Positions 24,669-38,178 are shown, counted from the first letter of the stretch. The stretch: DNA of 64,000 nt from an uncultured Solirubrobacteraceae bacterium (GCA_963701175.1 OY969573.1:385232-449231), one strand, 5' to 3'. Numbers and translations are program-made. Notes: generated by a model from the letters alone, not told the origin.

Positions 24669-25706
24669 GTGACGCGCGTGGGGCTCCTCACCGGGGGCGG
24701 CGACTGTCCCGGCCTGAACGCCGTCATCCGGGCGGTGGTGCGGCGCGGGCTCGCCGGCGGCGGGCACACCTTCGTCGGCTTCCGCTACGGCTGGTCCGGA
24801 GTGCTCCGCGACGACGCCGTCGAGCTGGACATGCAGAGCACCGCCGGGATCCTGCCCCGCGGCGGGACCATCCTCGGCACCTCGCGCACCAATCCCTACG
24901 CCGACGGCGCCGACGGCACGGCCGCCGTCAAGCGCACGCTCGAGGCCCGCGAGGTCGACGTGCTGATCCCGATCGGCGGCGAGGACACGCTCGGCGTGGC
25001 TCTGCGACTGCACGACGACGGCGTCCCGATCGTGGGCGTGCCCAAGACGATCGACAACGACCTCGGCGGCACCGACGTGACCTTCGGCTTCCAGACGGCC
25101 GTGCAGATCGTCACCGACGCGATCGACCGCCTGCACACCACCGCCGAGTCCCACGACCGTGTGATGGTGGTGGAGGTGATGGGCAGGCACGCCGGCTGGA
25201 TCGCCACCCACGCCGGGATCGCGGGCGGCGCCGACGCGATCCTCGTGCCCGAGCGACCGTTCGACATCGACGACGTCGTCGCCCACCTGCGGGCCCGTCA
25301 CGCCCGCGGGCGGAGCTTCTCGATCGTGGTCGTGGCGGAGGGGGCCACGCCCCGCGAGGGCACCCTCGAGGTGCGCGAAGACGCGGCCACCGACGCCTTC
25401 GGCCACGCGCGCCTGGGGGGCATCGGCGTGGTCCTCGAGAAGGAGATCGAGGACCGGACCGGCTACGAAACGAGGGTCACGATCCTCGGTCACGTCCAGC
25501 GGGGCGGCACGCCGGTGGCCTTCGACCGCGTCCTCGCCACCCGCTTCGGCGTGGCCGCCTTCGAGGCCGCGGCAGCCGGTCACTCCGGGCAGATGGTGGC
25601 GCTGGCCGGCACCCAGATCGTCGAGGTGCCGCTCCGGGACGCGCTGCGCGAGCCGAAGCTGCTCGACCCCGCCCTGTACGAGACGGCCGAGCTGTTCTTC
25701 GGCTGA
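24669..25706 (+). CDS. pfkA: 6-phosphofructokinase
   Basis: GGDCPGLNAVIR, GGTILGTSR, PKTIDND, EVMGRHAGW, GHVQRGG. Confidence 0.95.
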   Translation: MTRVGLLTGGGDCPGLNAVIRAVVRRGLAGGGHTFVGFRYGWSGVLRDDAVELDMQSTAGILPRGGTILGTSRTNPYADGADGTAAVKRTLEAREVDVLIPIGGEDTLGVALRLHDDGVPIVGVPKTIDNDLGGTDVTFGFQTAVQIVTDAIDRLHTTAESHDRVMVVEVMGRHAGWIATHAGIAGGADAILVPERPFDIDDVVAHLRARHARGRSFSIVVVAEGATPREGTLEVREDAATDAFGHARLGGIGVVLEKEIEDRTGYETRVTILGHVQRGGTPVAFDRVLATRFGVAAFEAAAAGHSGQMVALAGTQIVEVPLRDALREPKLLDPALYETAELFFG

Positions 25707-25716
25707 CCGCCGGGCG

Positions 25717-26754
25717 CTACACCGGCCAGCGCCGCCGCACCTCGGTGAGGGCGGCGCCGAGCAGCTCCTCCTCGGCCTGCGCCGGCGCAGGGGCCGCGCC
25801 GCGCGCGGGCTGCTCGTCTCCCACCAGCGCCGGAAGCGTGGCCAGCACGCACTCGGCCAGCACGGGGACGTTGTAGCCCCCCTCTAGCACCATCCCGACG
25901 CCGATGCCGCGCTCGCGCGCGAAGGCCCCCACCCGCAGGGCGATCTCGACGAACGATCGTGTCGTCAGGCGACAGTTGGCCAGCGGGTCGAGCTCGTGGG
26001 CGTCGAAGCCCGCCGAGACCAGGATCAGCTGGGGCTCGTAGGCGGCGGCGACCGGGAGCACGACCCGCTCCAGCAGGCCGAGCCACAGCGCCTCCCCCGA
26101 TCCGGGCGGGACCGGGAGGTTGACGGTGAAGCCCTCCCCCTCGCCGCGACCGCGGTCCTGGAGACGCCCGCTGCCCGGGTACAGCGGCCACTGGTGGATG
26201 CTCGCGAACAGCACGTCGCTGCGGTCCTCGAAGATGTCCGCGGTGCCGTTGCCGTGGTGGACGTCCCAGTCGAGCACGAACACCCGCTCGAGTCCCAGCT
26301 CGGCCACCGCGTGGGCGGCGGCGACGGCGACGTTGTTGAACAGGCAGAAGCCCATCGCACGGGCCCGCTCGGCGTGGTGGCCGGCGGGCCTGATCGCAGC
26401 CAGGCCGGCCGGCGACTCGCCCGCGACCAGCGCACCGGCCAGCTCGCAGGCCGCGCCGGCGGCGTGGGTGGCGGCCCGGAAGGACGCCTCGACGGCAAAG
26501 GTGTCGGGGTCGATCGCCCCTCCGCCCCGCGCACACAGCTCACGGATTGCGCGGACGTGCTCGGGAGTGTGGACGAGCGCGAGCTGCTCCTCGCTCGCAG
26601 CCGCCGCCGTGCGACGCTCCCAGCCGAGCCAGCCGTGCTCGGCGAGCGCGCCTTCGAGCGTCGCCAGCCGTTGCGGGGTGTCCGGATGGCCCGGGGAGAC
26701 GTCGCCGGGGTCGTGTTCCAGGCAGGCGGGGTGGGTGTAGAGCAGCCCGCTCAT
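25717..26754 (-). CDS. histone deacetylase family protein
   Basis: RPAGHHA, GFCLFNN, DWDVHHGNGT, SAGFDAH, LEGGY. Confidence 0.93.
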   Translation of the reverse strand: MSGLLYTHPACLEHDPGDVSPGHPDTPQRLATLEGALAEHGWLGWERRTAAAASEEQLALVHTPEHVRAIRELCARGGGAIDPDTFAVEASFRAATHAAGAACELAGALVAGESPAGLAAIRPAGHHAERARAMGFCLFNNVAVAAAHAVAELGLERVFVLDWDVHHGNGTADIFEDRSDVLFASIHQWPLYPGSGRLQDRGRGEGEGFTVNLPVPPGSGEALWLGLLERVVLPVAAAYEPQLILVSAGFDAHELDPLANCRLTTRSFVEIALRVGAFARERGIGVGMVLEGGYNVPVLAECVLATLPALVGDEQPARGAAPAPAQAEEELLGAALTEVRRRWPV

Positions 26755-26848
26755 CGGGGGCCCGCGCCGGGAGCGGTGCAGTCGCCGGCGCCACCACCGG
26801 CACCGCAGCCGTCACCGCGTGGGAGATCGTGATTCACTGGCGCAGGAT

Positions 26849-27862
26849 ATGGCCCAGGCGCAGAGCACGGGCACGATGCGCGCGATGGTCTTCGAGGAGC
26901 TCGGCCAGCCCCTGCGGGCGCGGGAGCTGCCGGTCCCCGAGCCGGCTCCCGACCAGCTGCTGTTGAAGGTGAGGGCCTGCGGTGTCTGCCGCACCGACCT
27001 CCACCTGCTCGACGGCGAGGTCGACATCCCCCACCCGCCACGGGTGCTCGGCCACCAGATCGTCGCCGACGTGGTGGCCGCCGGCAAGGACGTCGTCACG
27101 CCGGGAGACGCAGGGCGACGAGTGGGGGTCCCGTGGCTGGGCTGGACCGACGGGACCTGCGAGTTCTGCACCAGCGGCCGTGAGAACCTCTGCCTGAGGG
27201 CGCTGTTCACCGGCCGCGACATCGACGGCGGCTACGCCGAGTACGCGGTCGCCGACGCCCGCTATTGCTTCGAGCTGCCCGTCGATCACCACGACGAGCA
27301 GCTCGCCCCGCTGCTGTGTGCCGGGCTGATCGGCTACCGCGCGCTGAGGATGTGCGGAGACGCCCACCGCCTCGGCCTGTACGGGTTCGGCTCCTCCGCC
27401 CACATCATCGCCCAGGTCGCCCGCTGGCAGGGCCGCGAGGTGTACGCCTTCACGCGCGGAGGCGACACGGCCACGCAGACGTTCGCCCGCGAGCTGGGGG
27501 CCGTGTGGGCGGGCGCGTCGGAGGACACCCCACCCCGGCCGCTGGACGCGGCGATCATCTTCGCCCCCGTCGGCGGGCTCGTCCCGCTCGCGCTCAAAGC
27601 CCTCGACCGCGGCGGGAGCGTGGTCTGCGCCGGGATCCACATGAGCGACATCCCCTCGTTCCCCTACGAGCTGCTGTGGGAGGAGCGTGCGCTGCGCTCG
27701 GTCGCCAACCTCACCCGCCGAGACGGCCAGGAGATGCTCGCGCTCGCACCCGAAGCCGACATCCACACGCACGTGACCACCTACCCCCTCGAGCGAGCGA
27801 ACGACGCCCTCGAGGACCTCCGCCACGGGGCCTTCACCGGGGCGGCGGTGATCCTGCCGTAG
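26849..27862 (+). CDS. zinc-dependent alcohol dehydrogenase
   Basis: CGVCRTD, LGHQ, CxxC...E.LC, APLLCAG, GFGSS. Confidence 0.92.
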   Translation: MAQAQSTGTMRAMVFEELGQPLRARELPVPEPAPDQLLLKVRACGVCRTDLHLLDGEVDIPHPPRVLGHQIVADVVAAGKDVVTPGDAGRRVGVPWLGWTDGTCEFCTSGRENLCLRALFTGRDIDGGYAEYAVADARYCFELPVDHHDEQLAPLLCAGLIGYRALRMCGDAHRLGLYGFGSSAHIIAQVARWQGREVYAFTRGGDTATQTFARELGAVWAGASEDTPPRPLDAAIIFAPVGGLVPLALKALDRGGSVVCAGIHMSDIPSFPYELLWEERALRSVANLTRRDGQEMLALAPEADIHTHVTTYPLERANDALEDLRHGAFTGAAVILP

Positions 27863-29378
27863 TCAGGCCTGCGGCCGTCGCCCCGCCCCGGCCGCGGGCC
27901 TGCTCCGGCGCGAGCCGGAAGCCCGGTAGCAGCAGCTCCAGACGGGCCCCGCCCTGCGGCGAGGAGCCCGCCCACACGGCACCCCCGTGGGCCTCGGCGA
28001 TTGCGCGCACGATCGCGAGCCCGAGGCCCGTGCCCCCGGAGGCGCGGTCACGGGCGGCATCGATGCGATGGAAGCGCTCGAAGATCCGGTCCCGCTCGGC
28101 CGGTGGGATCCCGGGTCCGTCGTCGTCGACCACGAAGCGGATCCTCCCGTCCGCCTCGGGGCCCACGGCCAGTTTCACCACCCCGTCCTTCGGCGCGGTG
28201 TGGTTGATCGCGTTGGAGATCAGGTTGCGCAGCGCCTGGGCCAGGCGGTCGCGGTCCGCTGTCAGCCTCCCGTCCGGGAGCGGGCCGAGTTGGAAGCGCC
28301 GGTCGGCGAGCAGCGTCATCCCGTCCCACAGCTCCTCCAGAAATCCCGCAAGCTCGATCGGCTCCGGGCGCAGGAACTGCTCGGAGTGGTCGCTTCGGGC
28401 CAGCAGCAGCAGGTCGTCCACGAGCCGGCTCACGCGCGCCACCTCGGCCCGCACGAGCGTCTCGACGCGGCGCACCTCCTGCGCCGAGGGGTGCTCCTGG
28501 GCCGCCAGCACCTCGAGCTGGCCGCTGATCACGGTCAGCGGCGTGCGCAGCTCGTGGGACGCGTCGGCGATGAACTCGCGCTGCCCGGCGAAGGCCTCGG
28601 CGAGGCGGTCGAGCATGTGGTTGAAGGCGTCGGTGAGCACCCTGATCTCGCCGGCCTCACCGTCGCGGTGCTCGATCCGAGGGTGCAGATCGCCACCATC
28701 CACCCGGCCGGCCACGCTCGCCATCCGGCGCAGCGGGGCCGACACGTGGGCGCCGACGAAGTAGGACGCGATCAGCACCGCCGCCAGCGCCAGCAGGCCG
28801 GCGAGCACGAACGCCCGCGCGACGCCGTCCTGAGCGCGCGAGACGTTCCCCAACGCCTCCCCGGCACCGATCGTCACGGCGAGCCCGTTCTGCAGGCGCA
28901 GCGGGACCTTCAGCAGACGCAAGTCGTCCACGTCGGGGGCGGGGACGGTCGTGTAGCCCTTCGGTGCCTGCACCAGTTTCAGCGCGAGCCGGTTCTCGTA
29001 GCGCTGGTCGGCGGCCGACTCGCCGTCGTCCGGCCCCTGGGCCGTAACCAGCTCCGGGCTGTTGGAGACGGTCTGCTGGCCCGGGATCGTTACGAACAGC
29101 AGCCGCGAGGTGGCGCTGAACGGCTGGGTCCGCACGTACGCCCTCGCGGCCGCGGCCAGGCCGGCGTAGGAGCCCGGTTGCGCCGCCCGCAGATTGTGGG
29201 CGAGGTCGCTCGCGTCGCCCGACAGCTCGCCGTCGATCTGGTCGCGGACCTGGGTCGCCGTGCCCCGGTACACGGCCACGAAGACGATCCCCGTGCACAG
29301 CATCATCACCAACGTGAACCACGCCGCCAGCCGCCAGCGCAGTCCGCGCGGCGCCAGCCGTCGAGCGATTGATCGCAC
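27834..29378 (-). CDS. sensor histidine kinase (HAMP-HisKA-HATPase)
   Basis: ASHELRTPL H-box, NLISNA, DDGPG, GTGLGL; two TM segments. Confidence 0.93.
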   Translation of the reverse strand: MRSIARRLAPRGLRWRLAAWFTLVMMLCTGIVFVAVYRGTATQVRDQIDGELSGDASDLAHNLRAAQPGSYAGLAAAARAYVRTQPFSATSRLLFVTIPGQQTVSNSPELVTAQGPDDGESAADQRYENRLALKLVQAPKGYTTVPAPDVDDLRLLKVPLRLQNGLAVTIGAGEALGNVSRAQDGVARAFVLAGLLALAAVLIASYFVGAHVSAPLRRMASVAGRVDGGDLHPRIEHRDGEAGEIRVLTDAFNHMLDRLAEAFAGQREFIADASHELRTPLTVISGQLEVLAAQEHPSAQEVRRVETLVRAEVARVSRLVDDLLLLARSDHSEQFLRPEPIELAGFLEELWDGMTLLADRRFQLGPLPDGRLTADRDRLAQALRNLISNAINHTAPKDGVVKLAVGPEADGRIRFVVDDDGPGIPPAERDRIFERFHRIDAARDRASGGTGLGLAIVRAIAEAHGGAVWAGSSPQGGARLELLLPGFRLAPEQARGRGGATAAGLTTAGSPPPR

Positions 29379-29389
29379 CGGCGGGTGCC

Positions 29390-30139
29390 TCAGGCGGCGC
29401 TGCCGAGGCGGTAGCCCACAGAGCGGATGGTCGTGATCGGCACAGGGGCCTCCGGACGGCCGAGCTTGCGGCGCAGGTAACCGACATACACGTCAACCAC
29501 GTTCGTCCCCGGATCGTGCTGGTAGCCCCACACGCTGGCGAGCACCTGCTCGCGGGTGACGATCCGGCCCTGGTTGCGGCAGAGATACACGAGCAGTTCG
29601 AACTCGGTCGTCGAAAGCGGCACCTCGACCCCGGCTCGCCTGACCCTCCGCGTCAGCAGGTCGACCTCGATGTCCCCGACCTCGAGCGCGCTCGCGGAGG
29701 TGTGCGCGACCGCCCGCAGCTGGGCCCGAAGCCGCGCGACGAGCTCGGCCATCGAGAACGGCTTGGCCAGGTAGTCGACCGCCCCGGCTTCCAGCCCCTG
29801 CACCCGGTCGTCGATCTCTCCCAGCGCCGTCAGCACGATCACCGGCATCGCCGGCAAACCCCGTTGGAGCACCTCGAGCACCTCGAGCCCACCCTTGCCG
29901 GGGAGCATCAGGTCGAGCACCACCGCGTCGAAGCGCCCCGTCAGCGCGAGCCGCTCGCCCTCGACGCCGTCGAGTGCGGCCTCGACGCGGAATCCCGCCG
30001 CCGCCAACCCGCGGCGCAGGAAGTCCACGATCCCCGGCTCATCCTCGATCAGCAGGACGCTCGCCGAGTCGGCTCCGTCGCCGCCGTGGTTGCGCGACCC
30101 TGCCCCCGCGTCCGCGCGGGGCTTCGCGGTTGCTCCCAT
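29390..30139 (-). CDS. OmpR-family response regulator
   Basis: LLIEDE, VLDLMLPG, AKPF, YLRRKL, TIRSVGY; ATG at 30139 preferred. Confidence 0.93.
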   Translation of the reverse strand: MGATAKPRADAGAGSRNHGGDGADSASVLLIEDEPGIVDFLRRGLAAAGFRVEAALDGVEGERLALTGRFDAVVLDLMLPGKGGLEVLEVLQRGLPAMPVIVLTALGEIDDRVQGLEAGAVDYLAKPFSMAELVARLRAQLRAVAHTSASALEVGDIEVDLLTRRVRRAGVEVPLSTTEFELLVYLCRNQGRIVTREQVLASVWGYQHDPGTNVVDVYVGYLRRKLGRPEAPVPITTIRSVGYRLGSAA

Positions 30140-30242
30140 GCTCTCAGCCAAGGATAGGCCCCCGTGAGGGTCACAGCACATTCGATGAGACTTCTCACGT
30201 TGCGGTTAACGTCCGCTTAGGGGCCCTTCGCACACTCGCCCC

Positions 30243-30623
30243 ATGGCGCAGACGCACGCTCCGAGCGTCCCAGGTCGTCCCGGCACCGCCCCCCGCGTCC
30301 GCGCACGGCTCTGGTTGGGCAGCGGAACCGACGGCAACGAGCGCCTGACGACCGCCACCGGCGCGCTGCTGGTGGTGCACAAGATCAGCTTCATCGTCTG
30401 GGCCACCGTCACCGGCGTGCACCTGCTCGCCCACCTGCCCTCGATACGGGCCGCCCTGCGTGGCGACTTCTCCGCCCGCGATCCCCTCGGCCCCGTCCTG
30501 CCGGGGCGCTCGGGGCGACACCTCGCGCCGGCGGGGTCGCTCGTCCTCGGCGTCGTCCTGGCGCTTTTGACGATCCCCGAGTTCGGTTCCTGGACGCAGG
30601 CCCACTTCGGCCATCACCACTAG
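30243..30623 (+). CDS. membrane protein, possibly internally deleted
   Basis: GNERLT motif is followed almost immediately by HKISFIVW; first gene of the apbE operon. Confidence 0.6.
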   Translation: MAQTHAPSVPGRPGTAPRVRARLWLGSGTDGNERLTTATGALLVVHKISFIVWATVTGVHLLAHLPSIRAALRGDFSARDPLGPVLPGRSGRHLAPAGSLVLGVVLALLTIPEFGSWTQAHFGHHH

Positions 30624-30635
30624 GAGGCCACCGAC

Positions 30636-31101
30636 ATGCGCAACCACACCACCCACACCCGCGACGCCGCCCTGCGCAGACTCAGCCACATCAACCGCTG
30701 GCTGGTCGCGGGCAGCGTCGTGCTCACCGGGGTGCTGGCCGACGTGGCCGCCAGCGCCTTCCCCGGCAAGAACCAAGGCGAGCTCCTCGAGCTCGGGCAC
30801 GAAGCGCAGCTCGGGCCACACCAGCGCCAGCAAAAGCAGCCTCTCCAAACCCAAGCAGTCGCCGCAATCCAGCACCAGCTCCAGCGGCGCATCCGGCTCC
30901 GACACCACGGAAGCAAACAGCTCCTCGAGCGGCGAATCGTCGGGTGGCAGCACCTCGGGCAGCGGCTCCTCCGGCAGCGAATCCGCTTCGAGCGAGTCCT
31001 CCGAATCCTCCGGCTCCTCCGGGTCGAGCTCCGAATCGTCCTCGAGCTCCGGCGGCTCCTCCGAAGAATCGTCCGGGGCTGTCACATCGGGGGGGTCCTA
31101 G
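30636..31101 (+). CDS. membrane-anchored Ser-rich protein ending VTSGGS, split by a +1 frameshift near 30771
   Basis: TM helix to AFPGK (30636-30770); the +1 frame then reads TKASSSSSG...SGAS...SGAVTSGGS* with TAG at 31099-31101. Confidence 0.7.
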
Positions 31102-31109
31102 AGGTGCTG

Positions 31110-32075
31110 GTGACGGACGCATCGACCTCCAGGCGAGCACCGGTGGGTGCCAGCTGGCGGGCCCTCGGCACGACCATCGCGCTGCGCGTGGGCGAGCCGG
31201 GCGCGCTGGAGCGGGCTGAGTCTGCGGTCCGCCGCGAGCTCGACGCGATCGACCGCACCTGCAGCCGCTTCCGCGAGGACTCGGAGCTGACAGCCCTCAA
31301 CGGCCGCGCCGGTGCCACGACACGCGTCAGCCCGCTGCTGCGGGAGGCGCTCGACGTGGCGCTGAGAGCGGCGGCCCTCACCGACGGCGACGTCGACCCC
31401 ACGATCGGCCGGGCCCTGGAGCTGGCCGGCTACGACCGTGACTTCGAGCTGCTCGACCGCGACGCGGCCGGCGAGCCTCACGCCGCGCCTGGGCAGCGCA
31501 TCCCGCGGGTGCGGGTGCGATCGCTGCCCGGCTGGCGGGCCGTGAGGCTCGTCGTCCAGACCGGGAGCGTGCGCCTCCCCTCCGGCGTCAGCATCGATCT
31601 CGGAGCCAGCGCCAAAGCGTGGGCCGCCGACCGCGCCGCCGCCGCGGCCGCCAGGGAGTGCGAGTGCGGGGTGCTCGTCGGGGTCGGCGGGGACATCGCC
31701 GCCCACGGTCATGCTCCGGCGGGCGGATGGCAGGTGTTCGTCACCGATGACCACCGTGACGGCCTCTCCGCCCCGGGTCAGATGGTCACGATCCGCTCCG
31801 GCGGGCTGGCGACGTCCAGTACGGCCGTCCGGCGCTGGAACCGGGGAGGTCGCGCGATGCACCACATCATCGATCCCTCCAGCGGCGAGCCCGTGCGGGG
31901 AACCTGGCGCACCGTCAGCGTCGCCGCCGGCTGCTGCGCGGACGCCAACACCGCCGCCACCGCCGCAATCGTGCGGGCGGCGGAGGCGGTGCCATGGCTG
32001 ACGCGGCTCGGCCTCCCCTCCCGCCTGGTGGGCTGGGACGGCTCGGTCACGAAGGTCGCGGGGTGGCCGCTGTGA
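31110..32075 (+). CDS. apbE: FAD:protein FMN transferase (ApbE)
   Basis: ALGT, CSRFREDSEL, IDLGASAK, GGDIA, LATSS, HHIIDP, ANTAATA; RBS GAGG before GTG 31110. Confidence 0.92.
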   Translation: MTDASTSRRAPVGASWRALGTTIALRVGEPGALERAESAVRRELDAIDRTCSRFREDSELTALNGRAGATTRVSPLLREALDVALRAAALTDGDVDPTIGRALELAGYDRDFELLDRDAAGEPHAAPGQRIPRVRVRSLPGWRAVRLVVQTGSVRLPSGVSIDLGASAKAWAADRAAAAAARECECGVLVGVGGDIAAHGHAPAGGWQVFVTDDHRDGLSAPGQMVTIRSGGLATSSTAVRRWNRGGRAMHHIIDPSSGEPVRGTWRTVSVAAGCCADANTAATAAIVRAAEAVPWLTRLGLPSRLVGWDGSVTKVAGWPL

Positions 32076-32794
32076 GCAGCCTGCTCGCAACCGCCGGGCC
32101 CTCGGTGCTGTGGTACCTGACCCGCGCGACCGGCGCCGTCGCGCTGTTGTTGCTGACCGGGTCGCTGGTGCTGGGCGTGGCCGACGTGCGCCGCCTTAGC
32201 ACGGCCGGCTGGCCGCGCTTCATGGTCGACTCTCTGCACCGGACCGTGTCGCTGCTGGCGCTCGTGTTCCTGCTCGTGCACATCCTCACCTCGGTGCTCG
32301 ACAGCTACGCCTCGATCTCGCTCGTCAACGCGGTGGTCCCCTTCACCGGCTCCTACCGGCCGCTGTGGCTGGGGCTGGGCGCGGTCGCGTTCGACCTGAT
32401 GCTCGCCGTTGTGATCACGAGCCTGCTGAAGGGGCGCATCGGCTACCGCGCCTGGCGTGCGGTCCACTGGCTCGCGTACGCGAGCTGGCCGCTGGCGCTG
32501 GTCCACGGACTCGGCACCGGCAGCGACGTCAAAAGCAGCTGGCTGCTGGTGCTCAGCGTGGTGTGCTCGCTGGCCGTCCTGGCGGCCGTGGTCAGCCGCG
32601 TGTTGAGCGGATGGCCGGCCGGCACCCCCGGGCGACGGGTGGCGCTCGGCGCCACCGCGGCCTTTGCGATCTTCGTGCTCGCCTGGCTGCCGATTGGCCC
32701 CCTCGGCTCGGAATGGGCCCGCCGCTCCGGCACTCCCAGCCCGCTGCTGGGCCACGGCAGCAGTACCGACAGCTCGAGCGCAAGCACCAGATGA
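32072..32794 (+). CDS. ferric reductase-like (MsrQ-like) transmembrane heme protein
   Basis: WYLTRATG; His residues in LHR, VHI, VHW, VHG; GTGA overlap with apbE. Confidence 0.88.
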   Translation: MSSLLATAGPSVLWYLTRATGAVALLLLTGSLVLGVADVRRLSTAGWPRFMVDSLHRTVSLLALVFLLVHILTSVLDSYASISLVNAVVPFTGSYRPLWLGLGAVAFDLMLAVVITSLLKGRIGYRAWRAVHWLAYASWPLALVHGLGTGSDVKSSWLLVLSVVCSLAVLAAVVSRVLSGWPAGTPGRRVALGATAAFAIFVLAWLPIGPLGSEWARRSGTPSPLLGHGSSTDSSSASTR

Positions 32795-34152
32795 GCGCTT
32801 CCCCCTCCACCGCCGAGCTGCAGGCGCCCGCACCGGCCGGTCCGCCCGCGGCGCTGCCGCGGCTGCTGGCGGGCATCCACGACGAGCGCCCGTTGACGCT
32901 CGCCGAGCACCTCGCCCTACACGGGGAGCTCCCGCCCGCGGGCGGCGGAGGCCGCTCGCGCTCGCGCGCCAGGGCCCGGGAGCTGCTCGAGGAGGTCGAG
33001 ACCTCGGGCCTGCGCGGCTGTGGCGGAGGTGGCTTCCCCACCGCCACCAAGCTGCGTGCGGTCGCGGGCGCGCACGGGCGCGCCGTGGTCGTGGTCAACG
33101 CGGTCGAGGCCGAGCCACCGAGCCTCAAGGACCGCACGCTGCTGCGGCTCGCCCCCCACCTCGTGCTCGACGGCGCCATCGTGGCGGCCGAAGCGCTGCG
33201 CGCCGACGAGGTGATCGTGGCGATCGGCGAGCACGCCGGCGCGTCGGCCGCGGCGGCATACGCCGCGATCGAGGAACGTGGCGCCGACGGCCGGGACAGC
33301 CGCGTCGCCCTCACGCTCGCCAGTGTCGGCGGCGGCTATGTGTCGGGGCAGGAGTCGGCCCTGATCAGCGGTCTGGAAGGGCGCGAGGCGCTGCCCACGT
33401 TCACGCCCCCCCTCCCGTTCGAGCGCGGCCTGCGCAAGCGGCCCACGCTCGTCAACAACGCCGAGACGCTCGCCCACGTGGCGCTGATCGCGCGCCACGG
33501 GGCGCGCTGGTTCAGGAGCGTCGGCACCGAGGCCCACCCCGGGTCTGCGCTCGTGACGCTCGCCGGGCCCGTCGCCTACCCCGGCGTGTACGAGATCGAG
33601 GCCGGCGCCTCCTTGTCATCGCTGATCGACGCCGCCGGCGGCACCACCGGGGGCGTGCGCGGGGTCCTCACCGGCGGCTACGCCGGCGCGTGGGCGCCGG
33701 CCGCGGCGATCGGCGAGCTGGTGCTCTCGCGCGACGCACTCGCCGCTGCCGGGGGCAGCTTCGGCGCCGGCATCGTCCTGCTCCTATCGGCCGAGACCTG
33801 CCCCGTGGCCGAGACCGTACGGCTGGCGAGGTGGCTCGCCCAGCAGAGCGCCCGTCAGTGCGGCCCCTGCCTCCACGGGCTGTCGGCGATCGCCGAAGCG
33901 GTTGCGTCCCTCGCCGCCGGCGACCCCCAGCACTCCTCCGAGCGGCGCTTGCGGACGCTGTACGCGCTGACCTCCGGACGCGGTGCCTGTGCGCACCCCG
34001 ACGGGGCCGTGCGCGTGATCGCAAGCTCCTTGCGCGCGTTCGCCGTCGAGTTCGAGGATCACCGCCGGTCCGGTCCGTGCGAGCGCTGCCGCGACGCGAG
34101 CGAGCTGCCGCTGCCCCACCGCGGCGCGCGGCCGGGGACGGGTCGGCCGTGA
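32791..34152 (+). CDS. NuoF-like FMN/Fe-S NADH oxidoreductase subunit
   Basis: LRGCGGGGFP, VNAVEAEP, YVSGQESAL, NNAETL, CGPC..G...GACAHPDG. Confidence 0.88.
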   Translation: MSASPSTAELQAPAPAGPPAALPRLLAGIHDERPLTLAEHLALHGELPPAGGGGRSRSRARARELLEEVETSGLRGCGGGGFPTATKLRAVAGAHGRAVVVVNAVEAEPPSLKDRTLLRLAPHLVLDGAIVAAEALRADEVIVAIGEHAGASAAAAYAAIEERGADGRDSRVALTLASVGGGYVSGQESALISGLEGREALPTFTPPLPFERGLRKRPTLVNNAETLAHVALIARHGARWFRSVGTEAHPGSALVTLAGPVAYPGVYEIEAGASLSSLIDAAGGTTGGVRGVLTGGYAGAWAPAAAIGELVLSRDALAAAGGSFGAGIVLLLSAETCPVAETVRLARWLAQQSARQCGPCLHGLSAIAEAVASLAAGDPQHSSERRLRTLYALTSGRGACAHPDGAVRVIASSLRAFAVEFEDHRRSGPCERCRDASELPLPHRGARPGTGRP

Positions 34153-34367
34153 GCCGGCACGTCCGCGTCAACCCGATCGCCTGTGAGGCCCACGGGATCT
34201 GCGCCGAGCTGTTGCCGGAGCGGATCACGCTCGACGAGTGGGGCTATCCGATCGTCGACGAAACCCCGCTCGACCGCGACGAGGTCGACCACGCCCGACG
34301 GGCCGCCCGCGCGTGTCCCACGCTCGCGTTGCTGGTGCAGCGTGGGCGCAGCAGGAGCCGCGCCTAG
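34149..34367 (+). CDS. ferredoxin
   Basis: CEAHGIC...CPTLAL; GTGA overlap with upstream stop. Confidence 0.88.
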   Translation: MSRHVRVNPIACEAHGICAELLPERITLDEWGYPIVDETPLDRDEVDHARRAARACPTLALLVQRGRSRSRA

Positions 34368-34394: not shown

Positions 34395-35264
34395 TCACAT
34401 CACGTGGGCCACCGCCAGGCCGGCCCAGGGGCCGTAGGGGGCGAACAGCTCGCGCACCTGCTGTTCCCCGGCCACGGCTCGAGGGTCGCCGCCGCTCACC
34501 AGGCGACCGGCCAGCTTGCGCAGGCCGAGGTCACCGGCGGGGACCTGGTCGTGGCGGCCCTGGCCGGTGAGGGCCAGCATCTCGACCGTCCAGGGGCCGA
34601 TGCCCGGGATCGCCTGCAGCCGCCGCCAGCTGCGTTCGTGGTCGCCCTCGCCGGTCCCCCCGAGCTCGATCCGACCCGCCGCGACCTCGCCGGCCGCTCG
34701 CACGAGCGCCCGCGCCCGCGAGCCACCGAGGTCCAACGACTGCAGCAGCGCAGGTGAGGTGCGGGCGAGCACCCGCGGCTCCGGCAGGTCCCGCAGGGCG
34801 CCGTCGCCGCCGTGGGGCCAGCGGCGGCCGAGTCGGGCCAGCAGGCGCCGCTGGATCGCGGCGGCGCGCTCGTACTCGATCAGCTGCTCGCAGATCGCCC
34901 ACGCCAGCGCCTCGAAGGGCTCCGGACGCCTCGGCACCCGCAGCCAGGGACGTCGCCGCAGCGACGGCCCGATCAGCCGGTCGCGGGCGAACGCCCGTAG
35001 GAAAGGACGCACGTCCTCGTCCACGCCCAGCGCGAAGCGCATACGGGCGATCCCGTGCTCGGCCGCCTCGCGGCTCTCGGCGCACGCCGCCAGGCGCACC
35101 GAGCTCGACGAGGTCTGCCACACCCGCACCCGCACCGGCGTGGCGTCGTCGTGGAGCAATCGCTCCAGCGCGCCGCCGCGCCGGCGCAACATCCCGTCCA
35201 TGCCGGTCCGCCGCGGCAGTCGGAAGGGGCACGGCGGAGCCACCTCCGCCGACAGCTCGACCAG
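34395..35264 (-). CDS. AlkA-family DNA-3-methyladenine glycosylase
   Basis: EALAWAICEQ, HhH IPGIGPW, GDLGLR, PWAGLA; start approximate (ORF-track start 35540 runs into the next gene). Confidence 0.82.
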   Translation of the reverse strand: MVELSAEVAPPCPFRLPRRTGMDGMLRRRGGALERLLHDDATPVRVRVWQTSSSSVRLAACAESREAAEHGIARMRFALGVDEDVRPFLRAFARDRLIGPSLRRRPWLRVPRRPEPFEALAWAICEQLIEYERAAAIQRRLLARLGRRWPHGGDGALRDLPEPRVLARTSPALLQSLDLGGSRARALVRAAGEVAAGRIELGGTGEGDHERSWRRLQAIPGIGPWTVEMLALTGQGRHDQVPAGDLGLRKLAGRLVSGGDPRAVAGEQQVRELFAPYGPWAGLAVAHVM

Positions 35265-35292
35265 CCCGCGGGACGAGCCGGGGTGCCGTTCG

Positions 35293-35673
35293 CTAGCGCG
35301 CGCCGCCCGGCCCGCCGAGCAGGTGGACGTCGACCAGCAGCGAGCGGCTGCCCACGATCTGCACGAGCTCTCCGACGCCGCCCGAGTCTCCCCGCCGGCC
35401 CACGCGCCGGCGGCGTTGGCTCCGGGAGACGGCGGCGGCCCGCCGGTGGCGCCGTTGGACGAGGCCGATGACGGCCGCCCCCGCCACGAAGCCGCCGGCG
35501 GCAGCGGCAGCGGCCTGGACCGCGGGTGCGACCGCTCCACGTCGCAACAGGGCCGTGGAGCCGTCCGGCCCGGGCGGCTGCAGCCGGTCGTCCCACACGG
35601 GGACCGCGTCGACCACCTCGCCGTCGCCCCCCGGACCGTGGCCTTCGCTGGCTGGAATGCGCTCGGAGCTCAC
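35293..35673 (-). CDS. small hypothetical membrane protein
   Basis: one TM stretch AAAAAAGGFVAGAAVIGLV; C-terminal SRSLLVDVHLL. Confidence 0.6.
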   Translation of the reverse strand: MSSERIPASEGHGPGGDGEVVDAVPVWDDRLQPPGPDGSTALLRRGAVAPAVQAAAAAAGGFVAGAAVIGLVQRRHRRAAAVSRSQRRRRVGRRGDSGGVGELVQIVGSRSLLVDVHLLGGPGGAR

Positions 35674-35705
35674 TCCCGGCCAAGTCTAGACTTCGAGCCG
35701 GGGCC

Positions 35706-36836
35706 CTACTGCAGCAGCAGCGGTCGCTCGTATACGCGGTAGCGCTTGACCACGCGCCCGCCCATGCCTTCCATGCCGCGGTTCATGGCGGTGTTGGTCT
35801 CCAGGATCCAGCCCATCTCGCCGCCGTCCTGAGGGGTTCGTTCGGCAGCGTCGAAGTGCGCCTCGTAGAGCGCGGCGGCGACGCCCGTGTGCTGGTGCTC
35901 CGGTTTGACGCCGAGGAAGCCGACGCGGACGCGGTCCATGCGCCTCGACTTGGTCAGGAACTTCCACCAGCCGAGCGGCAGCAGGCGCCCGCCCATCTGC
36001 TCGAGCACCTGGTTGAGGTCGGGGACCGTGATCGCCATGCCGACGACCTCGCCCGTGTCCTCTTTCTCGGCGACCATGAACCAGTTCTTGTCGAAGGCCA
36101 GTTGAAGGTCCAGGTGGTAGGCGTCGAGGTCGGCCTTCGAGTAGGGCACGAAGTCCCAGTTCTCCGCCCAAGCGGTGTTGTAGACCGAGGCGAAGAAGTC
36201 GAGGTCCTTTCGCAGCTGGCGGCGGCGCATCGGCCGGATGCGGATGTGGTGCTCGCTGCGCGACTTCTCCGCGAGCTCCCAGATCACGGGCAGCACCTTC
36301 TCGCGTCCGGTCACCTCGAGGTTCCACATCAGCAGGTCCATCGCCTTGGTCATCCCGGCCTGCTCCATCATCTGCGGGTACCAGGGTGGGTTCCACGTCT
36401 GCAGGATCATCGGGCGCAGATCGAAGCCCTCGATGAGCATGCCACCGTCGTCGTTGAGCGCAAAGCTCGCCGGCCCGAGCATGCGCTCGCAGCCGTGTTC
36501 GCCCAGCCACGTCTCGGCGGCGCCGAGCAGCGCCTGCAGGACCGCGGCGTCCTGCTCGAACTCGATGAAGCCGAACCAGCCCCAGCGCGTGTTGTGGTGG
36601 TCGTTGAAGGCGTGGTTGATGTGGGCGGTGATACGGCCCACCACGCGCCCGTCGCGGCGGGCGAGGAAGTACTCGCCTTCGCCGTGCGTGAAAAAGGCGT
36701 TGAGGCGCCTGCTGAGGAACAGCCGCCGCTCCAGCTTCAGGGGAGGCACCCACAAGGGGTGGTTAGCATGGAGCCGGTAAGGCAGGTCGATGAAGGCCTT
36801 GAGGTCGCGCCCGCCCGAGACCGCCCTTACGTCCAC
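35706..36836 (-). CDS. double-GNAT acyltransferase, bacterial ceramide synthase (bCerS)-like
   Basis: FIDLPYRL...WVPPL, GRITAH.N, GWFGF.E, GP..F..ND..G.LIEGF, WNPPWYP, WILETN..M; divergent from an SPT-like gene; GTG start 36836. Confidence 0.75.
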   Translation of the reverse strand: MDVRAVSGGRDLKAFIDLPYRLHANHPLWVPPLKLERRLFLSRRLNAFFTHGEGEYFLARRDGRVVGRITAHINHAFNDHHNTRWGWFGFIEFEQDAAVLQALLGAAETWLGEHGCERMLGPASFALNDDGGMLIEGFDLRPMILQTWNPPWYPQMMEQAGMTKAMDLLMWNLEVTGREKVLPVIWELAEKSRSEHHIRIRPMRRRQLRKDLDFFASVYNTAWAENWDFVPYSKADLDAYHLDLQLAFDKNWFMVAEKEDTGEVVGMAITVPDLNQVLEQMGGRLLPLGWWKFLTKSRRMDRVRVGFLGVKPEHQHTGVAAALYEAHFDAAERTPQDGGEMGWILETNTAMNRGMEGMGGRVVKRYRVYERPLLLQ

Positions 36837-36858
36837 AGCCACAAGGCAGGCAGCGTAC

Positions 36859-38178
36859 ATGCGCACCCACATCGACGTATTCGCCAAGGCCCGCGACCAC
36901 GAGCGCAGCGAGGTGCTCGCGGCGGCCCGTGAGATCGACGTGCTGCCCTACTTCCGCCTGCTCGACTCACCGGCGATGCCGGTGGTGGAGATGGAGGGAG
37001 CCCCGCGGATCATGCTCGGCTCCAACAACTACCTCGGCCTGACCGCCGACGAGCGGGTGCTGAAGGGGGCCGAGGACGCCCTCCACCGCTACGGCACCGG
37101 CCTGACCGGCTCGCGCCTGCTGAACGGGACGATCCCGCTGCACCTCGAGCTCGAGCGCGAGATCGCCGACTGGATGGAGACCGAGGAGGCGCTGGTGTTC
37201 AGCACCGGCCACCAGGCCAACGTGGGCACGCTCGGCACCCTGCTGGGACCGGGCGACACGGTCGTGGTGGACTCCGGCGACCACGCCTCGATCCTCGACG
37301 GCTGCCTGCTCTCGCGGGCCAAGCTGCGGCCCTTCCGCCACAACCGGCTGGACAAGCTCGAGAAGATGCTCGACCGTGCCGCCGACGACGGCGGCGGGGT
37401 GCTGGTGGTCGTCGACGGGGTCTTCTCGATGGAGGGGGACCTGGCCCCACTGGCCGAGATCACCGAGCTGTGCCGGGCCTACGGGGCCCGTCTGATGGTG
37501 GACGAGGCCCACGGCGCCGGCGTGCTCGGCGCCCGCGGGGCCGGCGCCTCGGAACTGCTGGGCGTGGCCGATCGGGTGGACCTGAGGATGGGCACGTTCT
37601 CGAAGTCGCTGGCCTCCTGCGGTGGCTTCGTCGCGGGCACCCACGAGGTGATCGACTACCTGCGTTTCTCCTCCCGCGCCTTCCTGTTCACCGCCTCGGC
37701 CGTGCCGGCCGCGGTGGGGGCGGCGCTGGCGGCCCTGCGGGTGCTGCGCGGCGAGGACGGCCCGAGGCTGCTCGAGCGGGTGCTCGACAACGCCTGGAGG
37801 CTGCACGACGGGCTCGCCGAGCTGGGCTTTGCGGTGTCGGCCGAGCAGTGGCTGCCGGCCGGCGGAGGGGCCCAGGATCACGCCCCGGGGGTCCGCTCCG
37901 ACGGCGCCGGGCGGCCCAGGATCGTGACGCCGATCATCTCGGTGCTGGTGGGCGACGACTGGCAGGCCGCCCTGCTGTGGCGGGCCCTCTACGACGAGGG
38001 CGTGTTCGTCAACACGGCCCTGCATCCGGCCGTCCCCCCGGGCGGCGCGCTGCTGCGCACGAGCGTGATGGCGACCCACGACGAGGCGACCCTGGACCGA
38101 GCGCTGGACGCCTTCGAGCGGGTCAAGCGGGACTTCGAGGCCGAGCACGGCCCCCTGCCCTCGGCCCGTCCGGAGTGA
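36859..38178 (+). CDS. spt: alpha-oxoamine synthase, serine palmitoyltransferase-like
   Basis: PYFR, MLGSNNYLGL, GSRLLNGT, DGVFSMEGD, DEAHG, PLP lysine in GTFSKSLAS; no neighbouring bio genes. Confidence 0.72.
   Translation: MRTHIDVFAKARDHERSEVLAAAREIDVLPYFRLLDSPAMPVVEMEGAPRIMLGSNNYLGLTADERVLKGAEDALHRYGTGLTGSRLLNGTIPLHLELEREIADWMETEEALVFSTGHQANVGTLGTLLGPGDTVVVDSGDHASILDGCLLSRAKLRPFRHNRLDKLEKMLDRAADDGGGVLVVVDGVFSMEGDLAPLAEITELCRAYGARLMVDEAHGAGVLGARGAGASELLGVADRVDLRMGTFSKSLASCGGFVAGTHEVIDYLRFSSRAFLFTASAVPAAVGAALAALRVLRGEDGPRLLERVLDNAWRLHDGLAELGFAVSAEQWLPAGGGAQDHAPGVRSDGAGRPRIVTPIISVLVGDDWQAALLWRALYDEGVFVNTALHPAVPPGGALLRTSVMATHDEATLDRALDAFERVKRDFEAEHGPLPSARPE

Follow-up and report, generated by a model that had tools for sequence, protein, structure and literature searches.

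The operon described here occupies positions 27834-34367 of a 64,000-nucleotide stretch of DNA (GCA_963701175.1 OY969573.1:385232-449231; the whole stretch is hereafter the window) from a soil Solirubrobacteraceae-like actinobacterium with a 3.93-Mb genome. We consider it probable that this operon is a NuoF-type MsrQ-like electron-transfer module in which the C-terminal Ser-Gly-Gly-Ser (SGGS) tail of a small Ser-rich protein is flavinylated by ApbE, an FAD:protein FMN transferase (FAD, flavin adenine dinucleotide; FMN, flavin mononucleotide), in place of the usual FMN_bind protein, and that the module stands beside a divergent OmpR-type two-component system. Because the window has a G+C content of 73%, genes were called from a frame plot of G+C at the third codon position (GC3) together with Pfam and NCBIfam. 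By the frame plot and Pfam, genes for a sensor histidine kinase and a response regulator on the minus strand diverge from a plus-strand series comprising a membrane-protein remnant, the small Ser-rich gene, apbE, and genes for an MsrQ-like protein, a NuoF-like protein and a ferredoxin, which is the order given in a preliminary description of the locus. The observation behind that description is confirmed, and its interpretation is partly supported.

The small protein has three parts: one helix at the N-terminus, a disordered and hypervariable tail, and a C-terminal P-V-(V/T)-S-G-G-S that is invariant and under selection at the amino acid level. Its N-terminal part (46 residues; 30636-30773, plus strand) starts at ATG 30636 downstream of a strong AGGAGG, comprises a basic N-terminus, a hydrophobic helix and the sequence AxAFPGK, and is 50-84% identical to the product of the gene directly upstream of apbE in all 19 relatives with sequence there. 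AlphaFold2 (AF2; 61 sequences) predicts one helix (residues 6-41; predicted local distance difference test score, pLDDT, 83-86) and leaves the remainder unstructured (pLDDT 45-59); the ESM Atlas model is as poor as the AF2 model. Between anchor and terminus lie 81-125 residues that are unalignable between relatives, 82% of them Ala, Pro, Ser, Glu, Thr or Gln, with virtually no aromatics and no Cys. There is no Pfam match for the small protein, and its 120 database homologues are all unnamed and lack Pfam domains. A search for longer homologues with a folded domain gave only three, all of them frameshift or read-through fusions, which is a weak negative. A twin-arginine signal in the N-terminus was likewise rejected, as RR is replaced by RK, RQ, RE, QQ, HR or KK in relatives.

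The C-terminus is conserved to a degree that the rest of the tail is not. SGGS is the C-terminal end in 116 of the 120 database homologues (PVVSGGS in 112), the four exceptions being frameshift or read-through forms, and it ends the protein in all 29 inspected loci (29/29), which span several actinobacterial families. An N-terminal profile recovered 540 cluster representatives (E <= 0.001) among 1.84 billion proteins; among the best 146 of these, whose termini were checked, 95 end in SGGS and 97 in SGGS or SGAS, and the others are mostly fragments. In more distant clusters, reached through the NuoF-like protein, the upstream small protein ends in VATSGGS, AVSGGS, VVATGGS, DSASGAS or DASSNAS, with one Cys-containing end. 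The TGGS and SGAS variants (Ser to Thr at -4, Gly to Ala at -2) correspond to the degeneracy of the ApbE motif [S/T]G[A/G][S/T]. The preliminary description had made its reading depend on conservation of this terminus, which proves nearly invariant across hundreds of homologues and stands beside apbE.

Across the 29 loci, the terminal codons (31087-31098 in the window, plus strand) vary synonymously: Ser is encoded by TCG, TCC, TCA or TCT, and each Gly by all four of its codons. The distance from the small-gene stop to apbE ranges from 2 to 554 nt (2 nt in the window). Since the codons vary synonymously and the distance to apbE is so variable, selection acts on the protein and not only on a ribosome-binding site. 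An explanation of the conserved 3' end by a Shine-Dalgarno sequence alone was rejected on the same grounds (all four Gly codons, several Ser codons, distance 2-554 nt), although GGA-GGC nonetheless often forms GGAGG.

The small gene, apbE and the MsrQ-like, NuoF-like and ferredoxin genes occur together in all 15 relatives (15/15). When an even sample of 400 genomes of Actinomycetota was searched with the N-terminal profile (E <= 1e-4), ten further genomes from at least three families were hit, and all ten further loci carry apbE, MsrQ-like, NuoF-like and ferredoxin genes plus a gene whose product ends in SGGS. A NuoF-like query on the same sample recovers the ten genomes along with the more distant clusters; the search included one unpublished genome (G187), on which no claim is based. 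The small gene lies directly upstream of apbE in every examined locus that has apbE. In G055 (L099:3313-3700, minus strand), the gene just upstream of a NuoF-like gene encodes a small anchored protein ending in VVATGGS, and neither apbE nor an MsrQ-like gene was detected next to it. Two loci (L027:5668-6648 and L023:5217-6200) have two tandem paralogous SGGS small genes upstream of apbE.

ApbE is encoded at 31104-32075 (plus strand) and matches PF02424 with 164.3 bits against a cut-off of 25.6 (5e-48), although it scores below the equivalog cut-off of NF007774 (62.6 vs 498). From residue ~17-20 onward it aligns to mature solved ApbE chains (1vrm, 4xdt), retaining the DPT-G, IDLGA-AK, GGD, HHIIDP and ADA motifs, and it is encoded by the single apbE of the genome. 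The earlier claim that no gene for a folded FMN-binding domain is present holds beyond the locus: PF04205 was not found there, elsewhere in the 3.93-Mb genome, or in five relatives. DUF2271 and NqrB/RnfD were also not found genome-wide; nor was DUF3570, which is a weak negative because its control matched in no control genome. The motif [ST]G[AGS][ST] is absent from the sequences of ApbE and of the MsrQ-like, NuoF-like and ferredoxin proteins. When the small-protein terminus P-V-(V/T)-S-G-G-S is set against D-x-x-[S/T]-G-A-[S/T], the S, G and last S match. According to a review of the family, seven residues suffice for ApbE, modification is best at a protein terminus, and Ser is accepted; the conserved Asp is nearly dispensable, its replacement by Ala having only minor effects (PMC12052999). 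We therefore propose, from sequence comparison, that the terminal Ser of the small protein is the flavinylation site. The internal SGAS that the preliminary description had also noted is not supported in this role: it is not conserved among relatives, the closest of which reads SSSGEDSGS, and it was rejected as a flavinylation site. In full-text literature searches, no paper connected ApbE with a substrate of disordered or tail type, and none described this small protein.

Several features weigh against this assignment. In the terminus of the small protein, Gly replaces the Ala of the motif and the upstream Asp is missing. ApbE has no signal peptide or lipoprotein leader, its start lying 2 nt after the upstream stop, and none of the clusters seen encodes an ApbE with a leader. 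The anchor helix is flanked by basic segments on both sides (mean +3.7 and +3.4), and the candidate acceptor gene is frameshifted in the window. Finally, relatives, unlike this genome, hold a sister system in the form of a second apbE + MsrQ-like cluster, often with its own two-component system (L036:6046-6369, minus strand; L037-L045), whose apbE is preceded by a different small transmembrane (TM)-anchored protein; this protein contains the conserved block RRVLVRRIYERRVIVHLPP, and its C-terminus is T-R-(T/A/S/V)-S in all 120 homologues (120/120; mostly LPVTRTS), far from SGAT.

The frameshift concerns the window copy of the small gene. By three-frame translation, frame 0 from ATG 30636 carries the conserved N-terminus up to K45-N46 and is nonsense-like beyond residue 46; the next frame, with a GC3 of 0.86, reads KASSSSSG...SSGAVTSGGS to the stop TAG (31099-31101) and encodes the Ser-rich disordered tail (30775-31101, plus strand, +1 frame). 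When the DNA is aligned with that of the closest relative (G016), a 1-nt insertion in the window emerges at 30771-30774 (AAGAACCAAGG vs AAGAG-CAAGG). The tail is collinear with the intact G016 orthologue, and in relatives the small gene is uninterrupted, encodes 112-199 residues, and stops after ...SGGS. Because the relatives' genes are intact and the window has one extra base relative to G016, the restored protein is correct, and the copy in the window is either disrupted or mis-assembled; the restored Ser-rich protein of the preliminary description, with its SGAS and its end SGAVTSGGS, is thus recovered after a +1 shift. According to the list of open reading frames (ORFs), the insertion also brings the N-terminus into frame with apbE, giving a 479-aa fusion ORF (30636-32075). 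A natural anchor-ApbE fusion, for which this ORF, P0243 and L023 were considered, was rejected as a frameshift product, as relatives differ in the frame relation of the two genes and none of the three frames is interrupted by a stop here. P0243, in another assembly, is a similar 500-aa fusion with further frameshifts, and both tandem small genes of L023 are frameshifted. This low-complexity gene tends to show frameshifts, be they genuine or assembly artefacts.

Given the 1-nt insertion in the small gene and an in-frame deletion in the first membrane gene, the module in this assembly is impaired, unless a local sequence error is at fault. It is possible, if somewhat doubtful, that the module of this strain is decaying: the frameshift would then be real, no tail protein would be made, a 479-aa TM-anchored ApbE fusion might be made instead, and the first membrane gene would already be a deletion remnant. 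Consistent with decay, the insertion is accompanied by the 96-column in-frame deletion in the first membrane gene, and an N-terminal profile search shows the genome to be without a second copy of the small gene; there is moreover no sign of pervasive assembly indels (38 coding-like open frames of at least 1000 aa), and the remaining 11 genes in the syntenic block of 12 kb can be aligned over their full length. Against decay, the ApbE, MsrQ-like, NuoF-like and ferredoxin genes are all intact and tightly coupled, and frameshifted copies of the low-complexity small gene recur in other assemblies, where they look like errors (4/120 homologues; L023; P0243). Reads covering 30771-30774 were not found, the single sequencing run located containing only 6% of the sampled words.

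The absence of a leader from ApbE bears on the side of the membrane at which the tail would act. All four inspected actinobacterial ApbEs encoded after canonical TM-anchored FMN_bind genes, in MsrQ-like clusters with a fused FAD/NAD domain, are leaderless too (4/4; L087:5738-7044, L090:5999-6971, L096 and L097), so that the missing leader does not separate the present system from canonical ones and the argument from it is weakened. These comparison loci were taken from elsewhere, as the phylum sample's 30 best FMN_bind loci had no apbE or MsrQ-like gene within 1.5 kb. With both helix flanks basic, topology is ambiguous; our best guess, by analogy with canonical clusters, is by a modest preference that the tail lies outside the membrane, the alternatives being flavinylation before export or a tail on the inside.

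An inside tail would have the small protein flavinylated but cytoplasmic (N-out, C-in), its tethered FMN standing between the ferredoxin and NuoF-like proteins and the inner haem, like the cytosolic flavin in NOX/STEAP proteins, while the outer haem reduced an external acceptor directly. This arrangement would suit an ApbE that is leaderless in all clusters seen, given that cytosolic ApbEs are known (PMC12052999), as well as a segment after the helix that is as basic as the one before it and an MsrQ-like protein without its own FAD/NAD domain. We nevertheless regard it as unlikely. The NuoF-like protein and ferredoxin already supply FMN and Fe-S centres on the cytoplasmic side; the flavinylated partner in canonical MsrQ-like clusters is taken as extracytosolic, even though their actinobacterial ApbEs are also leaderless; an N-terminus with 4-5 Arg would need export; and the AxA-FPGK junction resembles, in our own reading, a signal-peptidase site.

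A further possibility, which we judge improbable, is that the conserved C-terminus is not a flavinylation site at all. It could instead be a peptide that docks on the MsrQ-like protein or on the DUF4405-like one, or a target of another modification or processing, with ApbE acting in flavin trafficking, in FAD hydrolysis (as does Treponema Ftp), or on an unrecognised site elsewhere. The departure of SGGS from [S/T]GA[S/T] and its lack of the Asp favour this possibility, as does the failure of the sister end TR(T/A/S/V)S to match the motif; because the sister family, which stands beside paralogous ApbEs, has an end so far from SGAT, the likeness of SGGS to the ApbE motif could be partly fortuitous. 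Set against this, the motif occurs in no other protein of the operon and the genome has no known substrate domain, the stop of the small gene is 2 nt from the start of apbE, and the TGGS and SGAS variants fall within the known degeneracy of the motif. ApbE also retains transferase-type motifs. Deka et al. are said to have found that an Asn at one position makes Ftp a pyrophosphatase; the window ApbE has an aromatic residue, Phe, at what we take to be the corresponding position. ApbE clades, furthermore, follow partner type: in the ApbE tree, the enzymes with SGGS-type, TRxS-type and FMN_bind partners form separate groups (support 98/91, 97/66 and 100/99), even where one genome holds two types. 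Such grouping is consistent with ApbEs that are specific for their partners and with a terminal Ser that is essential, and it also cautions that resemblance to SGAT is only part of the matter; the sister family may represent a second class of ApbE partner with a C-terminal tail.

If the tail is flavinylated, its electrons would come from the three genes that follow apbE. These are coupled by overlaps that were reported earlier for the last four genes and are read directly in the sequence: GTGA at 32072 (apbE/MsrQ-like), ATGA at 32791 (MsrQ-like/NuoF-like) and GTGA at 34149 (NuoF-like/ferredoxin). The MsrQ-like ferric-reductase-domain membrane protein (240 aa; 32072-32794, plus strand; PF01794, 8e-09) has His residues H56, H70, H132 and H145, which lie on two helices at spacings of 14 and 13; in an alignment of 26 orthologues, H70, H132 and H145 are present in 25/25 orthologues and H56 in 24/25 (Asp in one). 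Four conserved His spaced as in bis-His two-haem ferric-reductase domains fit two b haems. No FAD/NAD domain was found in this protein by Pfam. The NuoF-like NADH-binding FMN/4Fe-4S flavoprotein (453 aa; 32791-34152, plus strand) contains PF01512 (Complex1_51K), PF10531 (SLBB) and PF10589 (NADH_4Fe-4S), and is not the complex I subunit itself, since its 241.5 bits fall below the TIGR01959 cut-off of 558.65. With the small single-cluster ferredoxin (72 aa; 34149-34367, plus strand; PF13459 Fer4_15, 1.7e-12), it provides the obvious cytosolic donors, carrying NADH, FMN and 4Fe-4S sites.

We propose that NADH reduces the NuoF-like flavoprotein, from which electrons would pass via ferredoxin to the two haems of the MsrQ-like protein, the inner before the outer. 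With FAD as donor, ApbE would place FMN on the terminal Ser hydroxyl of the small protein; this flavin, on a flexible leash of ~100 residues, would stand in for the FMN_bind domain, accepting electrons past the outer haem and handing them to an extracytosolic acceptor. The chain from NADH through ferredoxin to membrane haem that the preliminary description had outlined fits the domains and the four conserved His, but its steps from ferredoxin to haem, and from haem to tail flavin, are inferred. Metals, suggested there as the acceptor, are not supported, as nothing specific in the locus points to them and the kinase sensor is without obvious metal ligands. The fullest form of the proposal is a natural flavin on a leash, with FMN on the last Ser of a disordered, membrane-tethered, fold-less peptide that moves electrons from the outer haem to envelope targets, perhaps, as the ApbEs are leaderless, after flavinylation before export, and with the TRxS sister family acting likewise; for this combination we put the balance close to even, tilting slightly against.

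The two-component system adjoins the operon in 14 of the 15 relatives and in many distant clusters. The histidine kinase (514 aa; 27834-29378, minus strand) has Pfam HAMP, HisKA and HATPase_c domains, two TM segments, and an extracytoplasmic sensor of ~150 aa; the sensor domain, conserved in 17 orthologues, contains no Cys/His/Met cluster. Its best NCBIfam match is TIGR01386 (heavy-metal sensor kinase subfamily; 229.6 bits vs a cut-off of 292.55). The OmpR-family response regulator (Response_reg and Trans_reg_C in Pfam; ORF 29390-30181, minus strand) is closest to cztR/silR/copR (TIGR01387; 202.8 vs 279.2) and HprR (183.9 vs 353), with PhoB and MtrA also below cut-off. By these scores, the pair appears nearest to the CusRS, CopRS and HprRS families without being a member of them.

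In relatives the start codon of the response regulator lies 8-12 nt from a conserved AGGATA/AGCATA element, so that the start in the window is likely the in-frame ATG 30139. The control region between the divergent genes (30140-30242) is common to 14 loci of the genus, in whose alignment a palindrome, ATGAGnnTTCTCA(T/C), is at least 80% conserved (30185-30198); it is followed by promoter-like elements GGTTA, CTTAG and CAnACT (30204-30236, plus strand), the last 7-9 nt before the first ATG at 30243. The palindrome is a candidate operator for the response regulator. A sigma-70 consensus scan of the control region gave no match; the presence of -10-like hexamers 7-12 nt from both start codons suggests leaderless or very short-leader transcripts in both directions.

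The first plus-strand gene (30243-30623; 126 aa), described earlier simply as a membrane protein, is present, but alignment with relatives shows it to be a deletion remnant of a ~220-aa protein, the 96 alignment columns missing in frame comprising TM1-TM3. The proteins of relatives have 208-267 aa, approximately five helices and four conserved His. A full-length relative gives a weak match to DUF4405 (PF14358; E 0.0035, 18.3 bits vs a cut-off of 26.7), and the remnant in the window none in the Pfam search, so that the DUF4405 link is a weak lead. An AF2 model of the first membrane protein (pLDDT 59.5, from 13 sequences) was too poor for a fold search. The first gene was not detected in the loci of 5 of the 15 relatives, the closest relative included. 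The flanks of the operon (24669-27862 and 34395-38178) are ordinary, encoding a phosphofructokinase, a histone-deacetylase-family protein, a zinc alcohol dehydrogenase, an AlkA-like HhH-GPD glycosylase, a double GNAT protein, and a class I/II aminotransferase.

Two-component systems and haem proteins of these kinds are found together elsewhere. In Escherichia coli, the CusRS-like system HprRS (YedVW) stands beside MsrPQ, which includes a ferric-reductase-domain haem protein, and in the NOX/FRE/STEAP ferric-reductase-domain superfamily bis-His haems carry electrons outward from NAD(P)H and flavin in the cytosol. The present locus differs from HprRS/MsrPQ in lacking an MsrP-type molybdoenzyme, and from both in having a separate NuoF-like protein and ferredoxin as donor rather than a fused FAD/NAD domain or Fre.

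The operon type has already been catalogued as the NuoF-like subtype of MsrQ-like flavinylation-associated clusters, which are broadly actinobacterial, normally hold apbE and an FMN_bind gene, and in 31 cases contain a NuoF-like (PF10589) protein (Meheust 2021; PMC8238504). In such clusters apbE adjoins a gene for a PF01794 six-helix two-haem protein, and the NAD(P)H donor is a NuoF-like PF10589 protein or a fused PF00175 domain (PMC8238504). The operon in the window agrees with this definition in that PF01794 adjoins PF02424, the four conserved His fit two haems, and PF01512/PF10531/PF10589 occur in the next gene; it differs in that the typical FMN_bind (PF04205) gene, which is not part of the operational definition, is found neither in the locus nor in the genome. 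The new part is the small fold-less partner ending in SGGS, which is not described in PMC8238504.

With FMN_bind proteins (PF04205: NqrC, RnfG, PplA and actinobacterial TM-anchored forms), the small protein shares an N-terminal anchor, a place beside apbE and an MsrQ-like gene, and a proposed role beyond the membrane cytochrome. FMN_bind is, however, a fold of ~120 residues that shelters the isoalloxazine, whereas the small protein has nothing folded after the anchor helix in the AF2 model. Flavinylated FMN reductases also carry the modified Ser in a C-terminal extension (Huang et al., 2024, mSystems; PMC11334425), but there the extension folds back on an FMN-binding flavoprotein fold, which the small protein is without. 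A likeness exists also to the Flavin-tag (PMC12052999; PMC9400968), a short unstructured peptide that ends in the modified Ser or Thr and works best at a terminus (D-x-x-S-G-A-T in the tag, x-V-S-G-G-S in the natural tail). The tag is man-made, with Asp as its first residue and Ala preceding the modified one, for which Thr is preferred; in the natural tail these places are taken by Pro-Val, Gly and Ser, and its modification is proposed.

The ApbE substrates described so far are all folded domains in which the flavin is held (FMN_bind, NqrB/RnfD, DUF2271, DUF3570, Flavodoxin_4 and FMN reductase), including those added by Huang et al. (2024; PMC11334425), and genomes with orphan apbE genes imply substrates that are still unidentified (Meheust 2021; PMC8238504). 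If the present reading is true, a tether that lacks a fold and is tagged at its C-terminus would add a new class of substrate, the equivalent in nature of the engineered Flavin-tag. Two questions would follow: how an exposed flavin on a flexible chain achieves selective electron transfer, and where the leaderless actinobacterial ApbEs act. Such a tether would also account for orphan apbE genes in Solirubrobacterales and other Actinomycetota and, together with the TRxS family, would make C-terminal tail flavinylation a general and overlooked substrate class in Actinomycetota.

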